From Octopus vulgaris (taxonomy: Eukaryota): 64,000 nt of DNA. The notes under the pieces were generated by a model, which saw nothing but the letters and a program-made list of their open reading frames with translations, had not been told where the DNA came from and ran no database searches. Of this stretch, positions 5,920 to 64,000 are shown one piece after another (the first letter of the stretch is position 1; the number at the start of each line of letters is the position of its first letter). The DNA lies in assembly GCA_951406725.2 (NCBI GenBank), contig OX597831.1, positions 13,082,001 to 13,146,000 of the forward strand. The letters are read 5' to 3'. The position numbers and the translations under genes were made by a program.

Positions 5920-6880
5920 TGTGTGTGCGTGTGTGTGAGTGTGTGTGTGTGTGTATGTAGGGATGTACATATATAAGTGTATATGCATGCTTGAACATAT
6001 GTACGTACGCACGTATGAATATATGAAAAAATCTTCCATCTTTGTTGTGATTATAAGAAATACTTGAATTAGATAGACAGAAGTAAATGGAGATTTGTTT
6101 TAAGTCGTGAGGATGTCGCACGGAAGCTGATTGTGGGGAAAATTTTGGATGAGAAATATTTTGAGATATTTCTATTCGTTCTCTTTCAGGAAATCTACAT
6201 TTTCAGAGCCAAAGCCCGGCTGTGCGTAGACACTTGGAAGTTAAAAACATTCGGTTTAAAGTACACCATATCTTATTACGCGTAACCTATAAGTAATTCT
6301 GTAATGATGTCTTCTCTCTAAATCCCATGAGACCATGACGTTGAGTTTCGTAGGAATCTGATAGTCCTTTATATGAATAGCTTCTTAGCCAATAATAGAT
6401 TGTTTGTGTCTAACCTTTAAACTAATAATACACTGTAAGTTTAAAACGTTTTAATAAAGGAAACCCCTGTAACTCTGTTCACCAAAAAATACATTGTTTC
6501 TATCAATTAAAGAAATATTATCCTTTAAGTTAAAGATTTATGAAGCTATCACTCTTTCATGATCGTTGGCTTCACACTGGAGAAACAGTGAGACTGTCGT
6601 AGGACATAAAATGTGATATACAACTGTCTGCCGGTTCTCTATGGGTATGTTGAGGGCCTGTCGTTTAACTTTCCTTCTGGCTAATTCTGTTATTTTATAC
6701 AAAGTAAACACTGTGGATATGTATTCTTACCTAAGAAAATACTAAAAACTCCAACGGAGAGTTTCATAAGAGAGTCTAGTCATGTGTTTATAAGATTATA
6801 AAATAGAAGTAGATTTTCTGGGAAATATTTTGAAAAAAGTGCCCTCGGTAAGAGTGTATATATGTGCATATATATATACA

Positions 6881-6912
<32 letters not shown>

Positions 6913-6914
6913 CA

Positions 6915-6945
<31 letters not shown>

Positions 6946-6975
6946 GTGATATATATATATATATATATATATACA

Positions 6976-7043
<68 letters not shown>

Positions 7044-7045
7044 CA

Positions 7046-7093
<48 letters not shown>

Positions 7094-7159
7094 TGTACAC
7101 ACGTACACGTACGTGTGTGTATGCATGTGTATGTATGTATGTGAATATACGAGTACTTA

Positions 7160-9930
7160 TTCTGCTGCCAATTGGCGTAGACGCTGGCCAGCAGGTGCCC
7201 GAACAAGTCTGGTATACTTTTGTAAAATTCATAAGGCAGACCAACGAGACCCGGCGACTTCTCCCCATGGCATTCGCCCAGTACCTCGATCACTTCCTCG
7301 GCTGTGATTGGCCCTTCACAGCTCTCCGCCTCTTGTGCCGAGAGACGCGCGCCACCAGAAAGGAAGTCCCTAAGGTCCTCACCATGATCCAGCGCTCTAC
7401 CTCTTCCAAACAACTCGGCGAAGTGCTTGTGAAGCACCTCACACATCTCGTCCTGTCCGTCGACCGAACACCCATTGTCATCAACGAGAGACCTAATTGT
7501 GGCATTATTGCCACGCTGGGTTTCTACCGTACAGGCCCATCCGGCAATATTAATTCCCCCACGGCCCAATGCGCGCACTTTAGCCCGAATTCTGCACCCC
7601 TCATATTTGGCTTTGAGGTGACGGTCCAAGGCCGTTCTCGCTGCCAAAATGGGAGATGCAGAACCCAATCTCAATGCCTCCACTAGGTCCTTAACTAGCT
7701 GCCCTTCTATTCTGGCCTTTTCTTGTCTTAGCTGATGGCTCTCTTGAGGGCGAACCACCATCGGTTATTAACAACCACGCCGGTTAACGCCCTCTGTACT
7801 AATTTCTTAATCCGTCTTCAGTATGCCTCGCAATTCAAAATAGACTTGTTTAGCTTCCAGTAGCCGGATCCTCTCTTAACTGTACTATCTAAGTCCAGTC
7901 TACACTTAACCATTCTACGGTCAATGTAAGCTACTTGGACAAGCTGTGAACAGCTAAAACTAGGCTTATCTCTAGTTCGAATCACTATCCTATCTAAGTA
8001 AGACTTAAACCTTCTGTCGTCGATAATCCAGGTCCACTCTGGGATGCTCAGATGGTTAAGTCTGTAGCGATGCGCTAGCTGAAAACGCTTGAGCAGATCT
8101 AGGAGACGTGAGTTCACTTTCCTATAGATCGAACCTACACTATCTATGCGTGCGTCAACAATAGCCTCCTAACACCACTAATGTCTTCGACGTCACGAGA
8201 AAGTTCTCTAGGCGCCGATAAAAATCAGTTTGAAGTCCTCAAGCACAAGGTGCATAGATTCCGATCAACCTGAAGGCCTTACTTCTGTATGTCACATCAA
8301 GGACGACCAGCCCACCTTTAGGGGTCTACATAGACTGTACTTGTCCGTAGAGCCAAGTCTTTCTGGACCAGTACTACTACATCCCCTCTCCCTCTGGTCT
8401 GGCAAGGAGACATGGTTTTCTCATAGTCATTCAGGAGGGGCGAGATGGCTTGAGACTGTCAAGCTTGGTCTCTGTAGCAGCCATCACATGCATATCATGT
8501 GATCTGAGGTCGTCGAGGAAACAAGCTTGCTTCCACTTCGAGCTCAGACAACGCACATTCAAACACCCAAGATTAAGTGTAGCCAAAACAAGGAAAAAAT
8601 ACAAGGGTTCTACTTACCCTTCACAGGTGATGTTGGGGCTGACCTCACTACACATGAAGCAGCCCTTTCCTCCTTCAAATATCCTGGAAGGTCCGAGATA
8701 CTCCTGATGGTCTTTGGATGCCTGTCCTTCAGTTGCCCGTAAAACCCTTCCCCTATCCAGGCACATCTTTCTCTTAAGTCCTTGTGCTCTTCAAACAGCC
8801 TGGTGCTGTGGTGATCTTTTACAATGTCCACAATGTATTTGTCTCTGGTGTCATATTTTACCAGGTTTTTCTGTTCGTTATCTTTCGTTTTTTTTCCTTT
8901 TTTTTCCTTGTGAGACAATGGGACAGGTTCGTTTCTTTTTTTTTTGTGGTGTGGTGCATCCTTTTTCGTTTTCTTTTGTGAGAGGTATGGATCGAGAAGG
9001 TGTGTGTGTTCGTTTCCGAACTGCTGTGAACTCCCCCTCAACTACTTCCATTGTGTCGTCCGGGGAGTTACATGTTCTGGTGTCACTTTAGAGGAGTGGG
9101 TGTTTTTGACGTTGTCGGGACTCGTGTATGCATGGTCTGGGGTTTTTAGGTGTCGTGTTTGGGGGCGGGCACCACAGGTGGGGGAGTGAGAATTTTTGTT
9201 TCTTTGGGAGCTAATGCATGTGCGGGTTTGGGGTCTTTTTTTGTAATTGAGGAGCCTGCTGTCTGCGCCAATTTTCATTTCCATTGTTCACAGTCTATAC
9301 GGATGTGGCCTGTTTTGCCACATTCGTAACACGTTGACATTTTGCCCTTTCCTTTGGTAGTTCGACGTTTTCAGTAGCCACCGCAGTAACTGCTGAAAAT
9401 TTCTTAACTGACTCTTCCAGTGAATTTTTCTCTGAAATTATTTCGACCGACATATTCGTTCGAAATATATTTATACACAATTTAATCCCAGAAAACGGGA
9501 AACCTATAACTTTTAACGTTTTTTTTCCTCTCAACGAGAACAACAGTTCAAATCCCACCCCCGCTGGGGGGGCGAGACGTAACAACAAAGCCTACAACGT
9601 TCGAAATTAAAATTTTCACACAATAATAAAAATACGGTATTCCCAAAAAACAGGAAACCTATAATATGTTTTTTTTCCTCACAACGAGGACAACAGTTCA
9701 AATCTCACCCCCGCTAGGGGCGGGGTGCCACAATAAAGCCTACAACGGCTAAAATAAAATTTTTCACACAATAATAAATTGCTTATCCCAAAAAACAGGA
9801 AACCTATAATATTTTTTTCCTCTTAATGAAGATAACAGTTCAAATCCCACCCACGCTGGGGTGGGGGCATGACAATAAAGCCTATAACGGCTTTAACAAG
9901 TTCAATATTTCAACAATTCACAACTGCAAA
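7160..9930 (-). mobile_element. Decayed L1/Tx1-clade LINE: 5' repeats, ORF1, APE endonuclease and start of RT; 3' part missing
   Basis: Minus-strand peptides: LGCLNVRCL...HVMAATETKL (~8590-8455), FRLIGIYAP (~8270), SYLDRI...GSGYWKLNKSIL (7818-8117), GPITAEEV...[14 protein letters not shown]...ANWQQN (7160-7761). Lys-rich ORF1 pieces at 8610-9453. Multiple frameshifts and stops. Confidence 0.9.
9487..9930. repeat. Three tandem ~145-155-bp monomers upstream of LINE ORF1
   Basis: GGAAACCTATAA recurs at 9498, 9653 and 9798, each followed by CAGTTCAAATC.CACCC.CGCT.GGG...AAAGCCTA.AACG. Confidence 0.9.
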
Positions 9931-10145
9931 AATGGCTTTACACAAACAAATACTTTCTCCCGTCACCGGGAAAAAACACAAAATTTTCAAAGTTTCACAG
10001 TTCGAAAATGTTCAACAATAAACAGTCAACAATCCCAACAGAAAAATTATCCAACGTTCAACAAAACGTTTGACTCATCGCCAAAAGAAACACATCTAAC
10101 CACGAGACAGGTAAGTAAGCTACATACCACACAGTCACAGGTATA

Positions 10146-10495
10146 CTAGCTGGTGTAACCGGTAATTCCCGGGGTGTAAAGATGTTCTATTGAAACGCCT
10201 TATTACTCTGATATAAGAAAGTAATTTCGTTATAACTGCCACAAAAGGTGTATTTTCCATCACGAAAAAGCACAAACAACTGTTAACTAGAGGAGGGAGA
10301 TATTGTTGGAGGTTGTCAAGTCTCGTGACATTGCATAATTTTGGGGAATCGAAGTTTCTTAAAAGCATAACTGGATTTCCAACCTTTAGATGCAATTCAT
10401 GCGGTGTTAGACCTGAAGGTGCAAGGCTATTGAGAAATTCAACTGGGTAATGAACAGTGTCATTGGTGTGGAGTACACTCGTATAATATGCCAAG
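10146..10495 (-). mobile_element. Helitron remnant with PIF1-type helicase fragment and 3' terminus
   Basis: YPVEFLNSLAPSGLTPHELHLKVGNPVMLLRNFDSPKLCNVTRL (~10315-10450) is the Helitron helicase motif. Minus-strand end CCGG-GAATTA-CCGG hairpin then TTACACCAG-CTAG|T at 10146. Confidence 0.85.
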
Positions 10496-10535
10496 GAAAA
10501 TATATTCAGAATGACAGAAACGGAAATGCATGTTG

Positions 10536-10980
10536 GGATCTTTTCGGTTTGACCGGAAGTTTTAAAAAATAATTTCCACGTAACTAAACACTTTTAAACT
10601 TCGTATACTGGTAGAATGTGTTTATAAAACATCTTTTTCTCTTGGCTTTATTGAGAAAATTCTGTAGTTTGTAAGATATTTGTTGTTTTTTTTCTTAAAT
10701 TTCTGCAATTTAAACCAATCAATTACGTCTATTGAGGTAAAAAACATTCTGTGCCATATGAATATGTCCCTCGTTTAAGAAACAGATTGGATTTATTTAC
10801 ATTTCGGAAGAAAAAAAAGATACCCTTCCCCCCACCCCTAACCCTAACCGTAACTAACCGTAACTAACCCTAACCCTAAAGCAGATTGAAATGCAATAGA
10901 TCGATACTAGGGTCATAATTATGGGTGACAATTTCATATGACACCGCTAGAAAAAACTGCCGTTCAAACCGCAAAGATCC
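10536..10980. mobile_element. MITE (445 bp), ~28-bp TIRs, 8-bp TSD; Merlin-like
   Basis: Left GGATCTTTTCGGTTTGACCGGAAGTTTT, right AAAACTGCCGTTCAAACCGCAAAGATCC. TSD GCATGTTG at 10528-10535 and 10981-10988. The superfamily call rests only on the GG termini and 8-bp TSD. Confidence 0.9.
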
Positions 10981-41547: not shown

Positions 41548-41644
41548 TATATACATAATAATTGAGATTCAGATGAATTAGGTACTTAGGTTGAAGCACC
41601 AAAAATTAGTGCGGTATTATCCGTACAGCTCAAAGTATGGTGAA

Positions 41645-42110
41645 TAAAATCAAAATAAGCAACAGGATATCAAGAACTGATGCAGTACGACCGTTTCAAG
41701 CGGCTCCATTTATTTGAACAATGCAATCGCTACATTAATTTAAATGCAGCTGCACAAATAAATAAATAGAATTTTAATCAGTCTGACACATTAATATAAT
41801 TTTGCTCAAATACTCCAAAAGAGCAAGAAGATAGAAAAAATTCCTGTTGTCGCTATTGTAGCTAAGAATATATTACTATGCGTAGCTACAATAGCAACAA
41901 CATGGATTTTTTGCTAGCTTCTTGCTCTGTTAGAGTATTTGAGCAAAATTATATTAGTGTGCCCGACTGACTAAAATTCTACTTATTTATGCAGCTGAGG
42001 ATAGTCCTGCATTTAAACTGATGTAATGAGTTCATTTTTCAATTAAATGAAGCCGGTTGAAACGGTTGTACTGCATCACTTCTTGCTATCCTGTTGCTTA
42101 TTTTGATTAT
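41645..42110. repeat. Large fold-back inverted repeat (~220-bp arms) containing a hammerhead in the right arm
   Basis: AATCAAAATAAGCAACAGGATA...GCTATTGTAGCTA pairs with TAGCTACAATAGC...TATCCTGTTGCTTATTTTGATT; loop ~41866-41882. Confidence 0.9.
41989..42076 (+). ncRNA. Type I hammerhead motif with long stem II (base of stem II damaged)
   Basis: AUGCAG CUGAGGA [57-nt arm with CAUUUAA..UGA/UCA.UUAAAUG pairing] GAAA C-GGUU-G UA CUGCAU. Confidence 0.7.
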
Positions 42111-44896: not shown

Positions 44897-45414
44897 CTAT
44901 CTATATCTATCTCTATTTTTGAACTTTTTTGCTTTGTGTTCCTTCCTGTTAACGAGCGTAGGATCAAAACGTCAAAGACTTTCTCATCTTCCTGAGCGTC
45001 AAGCCGGCCCTTAGGAGCCAGGCATGTCACTTGAAGGGACAAACAAATTACTTTAATGTATCAACTTTGTGTATTCGCAGATTAGCTGTGTTTTGGCCTG
45101 GTGGAGGGAAAATACTCTCTCAAATCTTAAGAGACTATTTTCCACCTCGCCAAAACGCAGCGAAGACGTGACTTATATGTGGTTGATTATTACTAAGTGC
45201 AAACGAATCTTTGATATATATTTATATTTTCTATTCATACATTCACACACAGAGGTGCAAGAATGACTCTGTGGTAAGAAACTTGCTTCCTAACCACATG
45301 GTCCCGGGTTCAGTCTCATTGCGCGGCACCTTGGGAAAGTGCCTTCTACTATAGCCTCGGGCCGACCAAATCCTTGTGAATGAATTTGGTATACGGAAAC
45401 TGAAAGATGCCCGT

Positions 45415-45527
<113 letters not shown>

Positions 45528-45528
45528 A

Positions 45529-45583
<55 letters not shown>

Positions 45584-45595
45584 ACAGTAATAACA

Positions 45596-46340
45596 GGTTA
45601 CCTACGGAAGCGCGTTTTTGCCTATGTGGTTTGTCTTCAAGTGCTTTGGTTTTTCTGGGAACTCCCTTTAAAGTAGAAAGAATAGCTAGGATTTTGACTA
45701 AAACTTCGGTGAAGCTACTCGTTGCTGAACCCTAATTATATAGTATTACTTAAACTTACCATTAAATGGTCTTTTTTCATGCCGAATTCTACTTGGTGAA
45801 ATGACTAATTACTTATTAATTAATTAATTTCACCCTTTGTTATTATTGATAATGGTATTTTTCTCCCAGAAAAAAAACTGTAGCATCTTACTTTGGCAAC
45901 ACGCTGGAGGGCGATGGAGGATGACTTACTGTCATTCATTTTTTGAATTTGGCGGCACTAACACGGAATACGACCTCTCTGATACCGTTAGGTTAAGTGA
46001 TGTTTTGCAGTGCCCTCAAATTTAAGATACAATTATTAATAATTGGGATACAATTATTTATGATTGTGGAATCCTACGCTGAAGAGTCGAAAATAGTCGG
46101 GTAAGGTATGATTATTTATTATTTATGCTTTATACTGGCTTAATTCCGAAACGCGCGTCCGTAGGTAACCTAATATAGAATGATTTTCGTCATTTTTCCC
46201 CTTTTGCCTACGTGGTTTGTTTTCAAGTGCTTTGGTTTTTCTGGGAACTCCCTTTAAAGTAGAAAGAATAGCTAGGATTTTGACTGCTATTTCTAAAACT
46301 TCGGTGTGTGGTGAAGCTAATCGTTGCTGAACCCTAATTA
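45596..46340 (+). mobile_element. PLE-type pseudo-LTR element with partial direct and inverted terminal duplications
   Basis: 45617-45741 is repeated directly at 46202-46341. 45596-45618 is the reverse complement of the hammerhead 3' end (46149-46170). Flanked by (TA)n on both sides. Confidence 0.75.
46073..46165 (+). ncRNA. Type I hammerhead ribozyme with intact core and extended stem II
   Basis: CCUACG CUGAAGA G...[AGUCGG/CUGGCU, UAAGGUAUGA/UUAUGCUUUA]...C GAAA C-GCGC-G UC CGUAGG. 6-bp stem I, GUC triplet (predicted cut after 46159), palindromic ACGCGCGU. Confidence 0.9.
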
Positions 46341-46460
<120 letters not shown>

Positions 46461-46501
46461 TGTGTGTGTATGTATATATATACATATATATATATATATA
46501 C

Positions 46502-60329: not shown

Positions 60330-61113
60330 CATCAGGTGTACTGTTGGCGGATTTCAGGACACATGGAAGTTTTGAAGGATGTAGTGTCTTGACAGCTAAC
60401 AACTGATGCTTCTGCAATTCTGAGCATGAAAATTTGTTTCCGAAAGTCATGGCTGCTGTGTTGTTTTTGATTTTATAAGCATGTCCGTGAGTGTGTGTCA
60501 TATGGAATTAAAAAAAAGGTACCAAGGTTGTTGTTGGAAATATGGTGGATAATCTTGTGGGAGTCAATCAAGTCAGTTGCCAGACGTCTGGGCTTCAATG
60601 TATCCATACCCAGAAATGCAAGACGTTCAGAGTGTGGTAGATGTCTGACGGTGGGTATTTGCTTTGTTGCACATTCCTGAACAGTTTCCAGGAGATTTAT
60701 ATGCTGAGAAAGAGAGAGGTTCCAGACTGGCGATGCAAATTCCAAGTGTGGACATACTATTGTTGTATTCAATTTTAAATAGATAACTGAAGAGTGGCTG
60801 ACAAAGGTCTGACTGAGTGATACTAGCACAACCTCAGCCTTTTTGACAACCTTAGATATGTGGTTTGTCCCAGGCAGATTGTTGTTACAATAATACGCAG
60901 AACATGTCCACCAGAAAATTTCTTGAGATTGGTGTTGCTGAGAGATTATTTAAAAGCTGGATTTTTCCTCCCAAAATGCATGGTGACAGAATTGTCTACA
61001 GATAGCTTGAGATGTTAGCCAGAGGTCCACTGCTGCAGTGTATCCAGATACGATTGCAAGATCGTATATGTTCTTTTTAATTCATGGTACAGCTTGGTAT
61101 CATCTGCATATTT
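60330..61113 (-). mobile_element. CR1-clade LINE 3' fragment (RT C-terminal half)
   Basis: KYADDTKLYH (YADD at 61099-61110), LDTLQQW, IVCPHLEFASPVWN...LETVQECATKQIP...ERLAFLGMDTLKPRRLATDLI. Confidence 0.9.
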
Positions 61114-61117
61114 CAAA

Positions 61118-64000
61118 ACTAAACTTTCAAGGAAGTTTTCGACGAAACATCCAGAAAGTAAAAAAAATCCTCGGAACTTCTAGTAAGTTTGAGGCCAAAC
61201 TTCCCGGAAGTTCCAGGAATTGGAAAATCCCTGGAACTTCCAAGGAAGTTTTCGACGAAACTTCCCGAAAGTTGAAAGAGCATCGGAACTTCCCAGGAAG
61301 ATTTCGACAAAACTTCCCGAAAGTTGATAAAACCTCGGGAATTCCCAGTAAGTTTTCCAAGAAACTTCCCGAAAGTTGGAACTTCCCAGGAAATTTTCGA
61401 CGAAATTTCTCTGATTATGGAAAATTCTCGGAACATCCGAGGAAGTTTCCGACCAAACTCCCTAGAGGTTTTTAAATCATATGAAACTCCCAGGAAGTTT
61501 CGACGAAACTTCCAGGAAGTTAGAAAGTCCTCGGAACTTCCCTGGAAGTTTTCGACGAAACTTCAATGCAGTTAGAAAATCTCGGAAATTTACCCATGAA
61601 ATTGCAAAGAAGCTGCCCATCAATTTTTCGACGAAACTTAGAAAATCCTCGGAAATTTGCAGGAAATTTTCGACGAAACTTCCAGGAAGTTACAAAATCC
61701 GAGGAAGTTTGAGACCAAACGTCCCGGAAGTTAGAAAACCCTCGGAATTGCCTAGGAAGATTCGACGAAACTTCCAGGAAGTTAGAAAATCCTCGGAACT
61801 TCTTAGTACATTTTCGACGAAACTTCTAGGAAGTTGGAAAATCCTCGGAACTTCACAGGAAGTATCCGACGAAACTTCCAGGAAGTTAGAAAGTCCTCGG
61901 AACTTCCCTGGACGTTTTCGACGAAACTTGCAGGTAGTCAGAAAATCTCGGAACTGCCCATGAAAATTTCGACCAAACTTCCCGAAAGTTAGAAAACCCT
62001 CGGAAATTTGCAGGAAGTTTTCGACGAAACTTCCAGGAAGTTAGAAAATCCTCGGAACTTCCCAGTACATTTTCGACGAAACTTCTAGTAAGTCGGAAAA
62101 TCCTCGGAAATTCCCTGGAAGTTTTCGACGAAACTTCCAGGTAATTAGAAAATCTCGGAACCGCCCATGAAATTTTCGACCAAACTTCCGGAAAGTTAGA
62201 AAATCATGGAAAATTTGCATGAAGTATTCGAGGAAACTCCCAGGAAGTTAGAAAATCCTCGTAACTTCCCAGTACATTTTCGACGAAACTTCTAGGAAGT
62301 TGGAAAATTCTCGGAACTTCACAGGAAGTTTTCGACGAAACTTCAATGCAGTTAGAAAATCTCGGAACTGCCCTGGAAGTTTTCGACGAAACTTGCAGGT
62401 AATCAGAAAATCTCGGAACTGCCCATGAAAATTTCGACCAAACTTCCTGAAAGTTAGAAAACCCTCGGAAATTTGCAGGAAGTTTTCGACGAAACTTCCA
62501 GGAAGTTAGAAAATCCTCGGAACTTCCCAGTACATTTTCGACGAAACTTCTAGTAAGTCGGGAAATCCTCGGAAATTCCCTGGAAGTTTTCGATGAAACT
62601 TCCAGGTAGTTAGAAAATCTCGGAACCGCCCATGAAATTTTCGACCAAACTTCCCGAAAGTTAGAAAATCATGGAAAATGTGCATGAAGTATTCGAGGAA
62701 ACTTCCAGGAGTTAGAAAATCCTCGTAATTTCCTAGTACATTTTCGACGAAACTTCTAGGAAGTTGGAAAATCCTCGGAACTTCACAGGAAGTATTCGAC
62801 GAAACTTCCAGGAAGTTAGAAAATCTAGGAACTGCCATGGAAGTTTTCGACGAAACTTGCAGGTAGTCAGAAAATCTCGGAACTGTCCATGAAATTTTCG
62901 ACAAAACTTCCCGAAAGTTAGAAAACCCTCGGAAATTTGCAGGAAGTTTTCGACGAAACTTCCAGGAAGTTAGAAAATCCTCGGAACTTTCCATTACATT
63001 TTCGACGAAACTTCTAGTAAGTCGGAAAATTCTCGGAAATTCCCTGGAAGTTTCCGACGAACCTTCCGCCCATGAAATTTTGGACCAAACTTCCCGAAAG
63101 TTAGAAAATCATGGAAAATTTGCATGAAGTATTCGACGATTCTTCCAAGAAGTTAGAAAATCCTCGGAACTTCCCAGTATATTTCGACGAAACTTCTAGG
63201 AAGTTGGAAAATCCTCGGAACTGCCCTGGAAGTTTTCGATGAAACTTCCAGGTAGTTAGAAAATCTCGGAACCGCCCATGAAATTTTCGACCAAACTTCC
63301 CGAAAGTTAGAAAATCATGGAAAATGTGCATGAAGTATTCGAGGAAACTTCCAGGAAGTTAGAAAATCCTCGTAATTTCCTAGTACATTTTCGACGAAAC
63401 TTCTAGTAAGTTGGAAAATCCTCGGAACTTCACAGGAAGTATTCGACGAAACTTCCAGGAAGTTAGAAAATCTAGGAACTGCCATGGAAGTTTTCGACGA
63501 AACTTGCAGGTAGTCAGAAAATCTCGGAACTGTCCATGAAATTTTCGACAAAACTTCCCGAAAGTTAGAAAACCCTCGGAAATTTGCAGGAAGTTTTCGA
63601 CGAAACTTCCAGGAAGTTAGAAAATCCTCGGAACTTTCCATTACATTTTCGACGAAACTTCTAGTAAGTCGGAAAATTCTCGGAAATTCCCTGGAAGTTT
63701 CCGACGAACCTTCCGCCCATGAAATTTTCGACCAAACTTCCCGAAAGTTAGAAAATCATGGAAAATTTGCATGAAGTATTCGACGAATCTTCCAAGAAGT
63801 TAGAAAATCCTCGGAACTTCCCAGTATATTTCGACGAAACTTCTAGGAAGTTGGAAAATCCTCGGAACTGAACAGGAAGTATTCGACGAAACTTCCAGGA
63901 AGTTAGAAAGTCCTCGGAACTTCCCTGGAAGTTTTCGACGAAACTTGCAGGTAGTTAGAAAATCTCGGAACTGCCCATGAAATTTTCGACCAAACTTCCC
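61118..64000. repeat. Satellite DNA, ~52-bp monomer, with higher-order repeats; runs off the window end
   Basis: Consensus TTCGACGAAACTTCCAGGAAGTTAGAAAATCCTCGGAACTTCCCAGGAAGTT. CGAC/CGAG anchors at 62022, 62074, 62126, 62177, 62229 and 62281. Diagnostic variants repeat at 647-bp spacing. Confidence 0.97.

Follow-up and report, generated by a model that had tools for sequence, protein, structure and literature searches.

A copy of a multi-copy hammerhead repeat in Octopus vulgaris, probably a retrozyme-type passenger of Penelope-like machinery

Within the 64,000 nucleotides of Octopus vulgaris DNA analyzed here (the window), a hammerhead ribozyme motif lies in a short non-coding unit between the two copies of a direct repeat. 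This raises the question of what kind of element carries the motif, how that element came to be inserted at this site and what the ribozyme might do for it. The question is of wider interest, because what hammerheads do for Penelope-like elements is regarded as open in the portions of PMC8557442 and PMC11167929 that we consulted, and the idea that animal retrozymes ride on Penelope-like elements has so far rested on their co-occurrence and on the similarity of pseudo-LTRs.

A type I hammerhead motif

The motif is encoded on the forward strand at positions 46073-46165. Its stem I is formed by six Watson-Crick pairs (46073-46078 with 46160-46165), and the two halves of the core, CUGAAGA at 46079-46085 and GAAA at 46148-46151, are separated by 62 nt (46086-46147). 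Stem/loop III is the palindrome ACGCGCGU at 46151-46158, and the GUC triplet occupies 46157-46159, with the cut predicted after C46159. The sequence criteria of a type I hammerhead, namely, a CUGAnGA plus GAAA core, an NUH triplet, three stems and an open stem I, are all present. The Rfam Hammerhead_1 model (RF00163) aligned with 46073-46165 over model positions 1-45, its entire length, with 24.7 bits and an E value of 0.00034; core and stem III agree with the consensus letter for letter save at the variable position, and the 6-bp stem I is shared. The score is below the gathering score of 34, because the long stem II places 60 nt where the model has 12. A sequence-only reading of this DNA had proposed the canonical core, the GUC triplet, the 6-bp stem I and a palindromic sequence, and both the sequence and the Rfam alignment bear these out. 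By its sequence, 46073-46165 is a type I hammerhead motif, for which self-cleavage is predicted. A gathering-level Rfam scan of the whole window returned zero families at threshold, and the snoRNA and miRNA matches were weak or driven by microsatellite.

As a control for chance, a relaxed hammerhead descriptor was run on the window and on 100 dinucleotide shuffles. Motifs with a 6-bp stem I occurred twice in the window and in 1 of the 100 shuffles, and none of the shuffles combined such a stem with a palindromic stem III. A pattern scan of metagenomes for core plus stem III yielded 121 matches at 120 loci; we attribute these to chance, since none has a stem I of at least 5 pairs. Two matches on viral contigs were likewise discarded as relatives, their similarity being confined to the 18- to 19-nt motif, and the scan of prokaryote genomes gave 0 matches.

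Structure of the element and its family

The host of the motif is a non-coding unit of about 602 nt with 35% GC, of which the locus holds about 1.2 copies plus a 23-nt inversion at the 5' end; it is present once in the window. The left flank is a (TA)n/(TG)n microsatellite (45418-45583), the likely insertion target, in which no target-site duplication is discernible. It is followed by 11 nt with no match in the element (45584-45594) and by the inverted piece (45595-45617, reverse strand), which is the reverse complement of 46149-46171 (22/23 identical). The source of this piece is the 3' half of the ribozyme, across the predicted cut site, and the piece overlaps by 2 nt with a pseudo-LTR-like partial copy of the repeat (45616-45742, 127 nt). 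The remainder of the element reads on the forward strand, as does this partial copy, and comprises a segment located downstream of the repeat in tandem copies (45743-45862), an internal non-coding segment with predicted hairpins (45863-46072), the ribozyme and the 3' copy of the repeat (46202-46344, 143 nt), with which the element ends and continues into the (TA)n/(TG)n microsatellite of the right flank (46345-46500). The internal segment contains a 34-codon ATG frame (45921-46025) and a 21-nt tandem duplication (46026-46066), and about 330 nt of unique sequence separate the 5' copy from the ribozyme. SINE-like repeat copies, which are abundant across the window, flank the element on both sides (45254-45416 and from 46502 onward), and the insertion lies in the microsatellite downstream of the left one.

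The two copies of the repeat differ by three substitutions and by 9- and 7-nt gaps, both deletions in the 5' copy. The proposed repetition of the last ~130 bp at the 5' end, preceded by an inverted piece of the ribozyme 3' end, was hence found as described. The spacing of ~585 bp given for it was corrected: the repeats lie 586 nt apart at their starts and 602 nt at their ends, and since relatives carry both segments missing from the 5' copy (loose ends 46296/46297), the unit measures about 602 nt.

Neither the frames nor protein searches revealed coding homology across the element, and an open reading frame for reverse transcriptase (RT) plus GIY-YIG endonuclease is absent; in agreement with the initial view that coding capacity is lacking, no homologue was found for the frames of the element. 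The frame at 45921-46025 was considered as a remnant of a Penelope open reading frame and is at best a doubtful candidate; it had no match among longer proteins. The 10 phmmer matches to it were multi-stretch matches to unrelated repeat proteins; 3 of the 10 were scanned in Pfam, and none was an RT or GIY-YIG protein. Relatives mostly have a stop at 45994, and the third-position bias of the frame is insignificant (6/11, P 0.12; 7/12 counting 45995). A splice-donor-like string occurs at the 3' end of stem I (46163-46170) and an acceptor-like string in the next unit (45858-45869), an arrangement that recalls the 5' untranslated region intron of Penelope. The corresponding intron, from 46166 to position 45869 of the next unit, was dismissed, as no such joint is among those listed, where coverage in presumed RNA runs is thin.

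The stretch is partly present in 20 of 24 listed public sequencing runs from four organisms, with at most 0.41 of its sampled words in any one. One unit (45743-46342) was aligned against the contigs of four runs whose type was guessed, X2 and X3 being presumed DNA runs and X12 and X15 presumed RNA runs. The listed carriers include no RNA run, X12 and X15 being RNA by guess and their contigs coming without end or strand information. In the two presumed DNA runs, which derive from two organisms, 1123 and 1446 contigs matched, and 845 and 1077, respectively, were less than 95% alike. Contigs with 6 to 17 differences overlap one another (45823-45970, 45940-46022, 45983-46097, 46057-46246 and the junction 46342 to 45743), and this head-to-tail joint was found in X3 and X12. 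On this sequence evidence, the element is a member of a large, dispersed, multi-copy family. Loci with two complete ribozymes in tandem were not seen among the listed contigs, none of which spans a unit. The window locus has one complete hammerhead, and the preprint 10.64898/2026.07.22.740005 reserves "active" for loci with at least two in tandem.

The summed depth, which is not a copy number, climbs to 46283-46342 and 45763-45842 and then drops about 10- to 100-fold by 45863. The drop is sharp at about 45850-45862, and (TA)n makes up the loose ends at 45843 and 45852. We read depth and loose ends together as the trace of 5'-truncated copies with two 3' ends, at about 46344 and at about 45850 of the next unit, about 110 nt apart; in many relatives, 45743-45862 appears to be a 3' extension that ends at about 45845-45860 in (TA)n, at the second of these ends. 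Truncation of copies at the cut site is not supported, as the depth step in this region is between 46139 and 46154, upstream of the cut. Another inversion joint, 46068/46161, occurs in both presumed DNA runs; one of its arms lies one base from the cut site, and it represents a single event.

Long stem II and a predicted blocking arm

Stem II is extended by a 17-bp helix at 46095-46140 (46095-46111 with 46123-46140, forward strand), which was predicted with a pair probability of about 0.97 and includes 6 G-U pairs. Its base is weak in the window copy, with a single G-C pair followed by a 2-nt bulge that is absent in a minority of relatives. By eye, a 3x3 internal loop lies about 4 bp out on the stem, and the terminal loop is distant from the core. 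Two of the six G-U pairs (46110 and 46138) are A-U in most relatives. The description of stem II as unusually long and G-U-rich thus stands for the length of 62 nt and only in part for the G-U richness. All three of the listed stem II variants in relatives preserve pairing, two of them by converting G-U to A-U. RNA editing was rejected as the origin of the G-U pairs, as G>A is not in excess over the other transitions (11/11/11/7 in X2).

The depth step between 46139 and 46154 implies that the alignment of the majority sibling starts at the base of stem II. This sibling probably has a different stem II, and to judge from the contigs, the 62-nt form is established only for the subfamily of the window copy. 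A relative in run X12 aligns with 45928-46025 and with 46124-46281, and between these two blocks it has 56 unlike letters where the unit has 98; it is possibly a sibling with a different, and possibly shorter, ribozyme 5' part. Long stem II loops have a precedent, because two spike-moss elements carry loops of about 30-35 nt (PMC8557442, in the part of the supplement consulted). Literature searches for long-stem or cephalopod hammerheads turned up no description of the family, and the portions of main text consulted of two octopus repeat papers (PMC13282606 and PMC8967140) make no mention of ribozymes.

Downstream of the ribozyme, a predicted blocking arm was located at 46204-46223 (forward strand). 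Its first part (46204-46212) is complementary to the 3' arm of stem I and pairs with 46160-46168 (probability 0.91), and its second part (46215-46223) is complementary to, and pairs with, 46148-46156 (probability about 0.6). When transcripts growing from 45950 were folded, the probability of stem I was 0.96-0.97 up to 46206, 0.88 at 46210 and 0 from 46213, and it was 0.06 in the circle. By this equilibrium prediction, the downstream helix would close off the ribozyme once about 45 nt more had been transcribed. The listed variants at 46210 and 46155 keep the pairs of the arm.

Further data point to selection on RNA structure. The circular unit folds with a z score of -6.6 on the forward strand versus -2.7 on the reverse strand, with 66% of its positions paired; the 16 of 18 microsatellite-free control stretches that were tested gave z scores from +1.7 to -4.5. 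The 34 variants considered disrupt 7 predicted pairs versus 13.4 expected (P 0.003), a test in which the variants are non-independent and which drew on the 40 rows shown of 92, less six rare or second-allele rows. In stem III, for which an 8-bp intermolecular helix is predicted in the dimer (self-duplex -13.3 kcal/mol), the two commonest substitutions fall at 46154 and 46155. Their depths are close to each other (33696 and 33417 of 44040 in X2; 18660 and 17465 of 26102 in X3), and jointly they preserve an 8-nt palindrome. Such paired changes fit the expectation for a dimer-acting ribozyme, their linkage being derived from a pooled table and not from single molecules. Palindromic stem III and action as a dimer are described in the consulted parts of PMC4209133, PMC3088659 and PMC6765202.

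Origin of the insertion

The locus carries the marks of a Penelope-like insertion: a pseudo-LTR partial tandem, an inverted truncated 5' copy, and a microsatellite target with no clear target-site duplication. A truncated upstream copy, an inverted 5' copy, a tail and a bias for (TA)n make up the pattern described for Penelope-like elements (PMC8557442 and PMC8969392, in part), and Hydra-clade elements have a hammerhead near the 3' end and a (TA)n target (PMC8557442, part of the supplement). Like the pseudo-LTR hammerheads of these elements (PMC4209133 and PMC8557442, as far as consulted), ours is of type I, has a weak palindromic stem III, lies near the 3' end and is found with a partial tandem, an inverted 5' copy, apparent alternative 3' ends and a (TA)n target. 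In contrast to Penelope-like elements, it has no RT or GIY-YIG frame; its stem I of 6 bp and its Rfam-consensus stem III differ from the minimal form, its stem II is far above the 7-8 bp described, and its 3' extension of about 110 nt compares with an optional tail of 30-40 nt in the same partly consulted sources. No autonomous partner element was identified. A comparison by eye with two published octopus families showed no resemblance of the element to the 3' ends of octopus Naiads, nor does it look like the Hydra-clade hammerhead sequence. The idea that the "half core" noted for octopus Naiads is a long-stem-II type I motif is not supported, as its halves, again by eye, are in the opposite order.

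The element shares with metazoan non-LTR retrozymes, in so far as these are covered by the consulted parts of PMC7229834 and 10.64898/2026.07.22.740005, a non-coding unit, a GC content under 45-50%, a type I hammerhead, a head-to-tail arrangement, a highly paired predicted RNA and a proposed Penelope-like mobilizer. Its 602-nt unit is within the 51-972 range of the preprint, in which, as far as consulted, 1 of 9 dimers cleaved and non-LTR retrozymes are argued to derive from Penelope-like pseudo-LTRs; circles were shown in coral, mussel and axolotl (PMC7229834, in part). It differs in exceeding the 170-400 nt described for invertebrate units, in a stem II of 62 nt versus about 14 in the portions consulted, and in the single complete ribozyme of the window copy. 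Blocking of the ribozyme in the circle is predicted for the element, and among animals, some mussel retrozymes are the only ones for which the consulted part of PMC7229834 reports it. Plant LTR retrozymes and hammerhead viroids also have a complementary stretch predicted to block the ribozyme in the finished RNA (PMC7229834, in part), but their type III hammerheads, LTRs and PBS/PPT are absent from the element. The class of the element is thus already known, and what sets it apart is the long stem II together with the predicted block.

Three other origins were weighed. The stretch could be no more than the pseudo-LTR at the 3' end of an autonomous Penelope-like element that was 5'-truncated on insertion, with no separate non-coding family. 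Such truncation is typical of these insertions (10.64898/2026.07.22.740005 and PMC8969392, in the parts consulted), the depth peaks at the 3' end, a number of loose ends depart from the unit beyond 45852 and ahead of 46147, and the donor-like 46164 and acceptor-like 45858-45869 lie ahead of the short frame. However, the upstream sequence reaches repeat and tail after about 330 nt with no RT/endonuclease remnant, 45823-45970 and the sequence beyond it are spanned by contigs from other copies, and the short frame has no homologue, a stop in most relatives and an insignificant bias; we consider this origin unlikely. Spread of a hammerhead SINE or satellite by a LINE or by DNA-level duplication, with the direct repeat as a later local duplication, appears quite improbable: although LINE fragments and SINE-like repeats abound in the window and LINEs also produce 5' inversions, the B box, tRNA match and poly(A) tail are all absent from the element, and the recurrent head-to-tail junction and the two apparent 3' ends correspond to the Penelope-like pattern. 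Hammerhead SINEs as such are known from schistosomes (PMC6765202, in part). We give hardly any credence to the view that the host has domesticated the ribozyme for processing a transcript at this locus. The core is intact and relatives occur in contigs of presumed RNA runs, 42% of them continuing into unlike sequence in X12, but the family has many dispersed copies, among which this locus has private deletions, no run carries half of its sampled words and no host gene was recognized nearby (12 frames scanned).

Our preferred explanation, to which we assign a probability of about 0.75, is that the locus is a copy of a multi-copy, 602-nt hammerhead repeat that behaves as a retrozyme-type passenger RNA and was inserted in (TA)n by a Penelope-like RT/endonuclease. 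Tandem source loci would be transcribed on the forward strand, and two ribozymes would associate through their palindromic stem III and cleave the RNA after GUC. Stem I would form only until about 45 nt more had been transcribed, after which 46204-46223 would sequester the 3' half of the ribozyme. At a nick in (TA)n, reverse transcription would begin from one of two internal starts (about 46344 or about 45850), and synthesis would span 1.2 units before a template switch gave rise to the inverted piece, for which a second priming would also fit. In an anole Penelope-like element, RT similarly starts at two internal sites, giving two 3' ends; its main substrate is uncut RNA, and its ribozyme requires protein (PMC11167929, in the part consulted).

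The template would be an uncut multimer, a re-ligated circle or an RNA bridged by a template jump, because the direct part reads past the cut site and over more than one unit. We give uncut RNA roughly an even chance, RNA that was cut and circularized a slightly lower one, and a bridging jump a small one. Had the template been a linear monomer released by cutting, its end would lie 185 nt from the 46344 start; the inverted piece also spans the uncut site. The earlier suggestion of a unit-length, possibly circularly permuted RNA intermediate survives in that a longer-than-unit RNA template is supported; a circle is possible but not implied, because the junction exists in DNA, at the locus and in a presumed DNA run, and uncut tandem transcripts explain it equally well. 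The window copy would not release a monomer, because it has only one complete ribozyme, and it is probably a dead-end insertion. In this family, a non-coding unit bears insertion marks of the Penelope type, and it could serve as a compact construct for dimer-cutting tests with and without the predicted blocking arm.

A second hammerhead-like motif, unrelated to 46073-46165 in sequence, lies about 4 kb away at 41989-42076 (forward strand). It has a 6-bp stem I, a 57-nt stem II region, a GUA triplet and a wobble palindrome, and it sits in a 461-nt fold-back with 83% identity between the arms and (TA)n on either side (41556-42110); in the inverted arm, the hammerhead core has been partly lost. 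The motif is probably decayed, because Rfam reported nothing at 41989-42076 and the stem II does not fold as one clean helix. The fold-back as a whole probably stems from a separate and older insertion of the Penelope type. That two unrelated elements inserted in (TA)n bear long-stem motifs within 4 kb suggests, in a sample of two motifs, that a long stem II may be a trait of the lineage. Both motifs escape the Rfam threshold and the 7- to 17-nt spacer descriptors of Penelope surveys; standard searches would miss such motifs, and hammerhead counts in such genomes may be low. A joint reading, which we advance tentatively and hold to be somewhat doubtful, is that hammerheads with a stem II of 55-65 nt are recurrent and overlooked in the lineage and that the conserved downstream arm of the family serves as a transcription-timed off switch. 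If true, the arm would confine cutting to nascent dimers and leave circles and multimers intact for reverse transcription, and the role of Penelope-associated hammerheads would become directly testable.

The window is AT-rich and microsatellite-rich, with many short interspersed repeats and LINE-like fragments. By eye, 6796-8168 and 60473-60949 (both on the reverse strand) are LINE reverse transcriptase/endonuclease-like remnants, two of which were scanned with no Pfam match. A fragment of a Pif1 helicase 2B domain (Pfam PF21530, E 6e-14), likely a Helitron remnant, is found at 10135-10593 (reverse strand), and a large diverged tandem array occupies 61121-64000 and runs past the end of the window.
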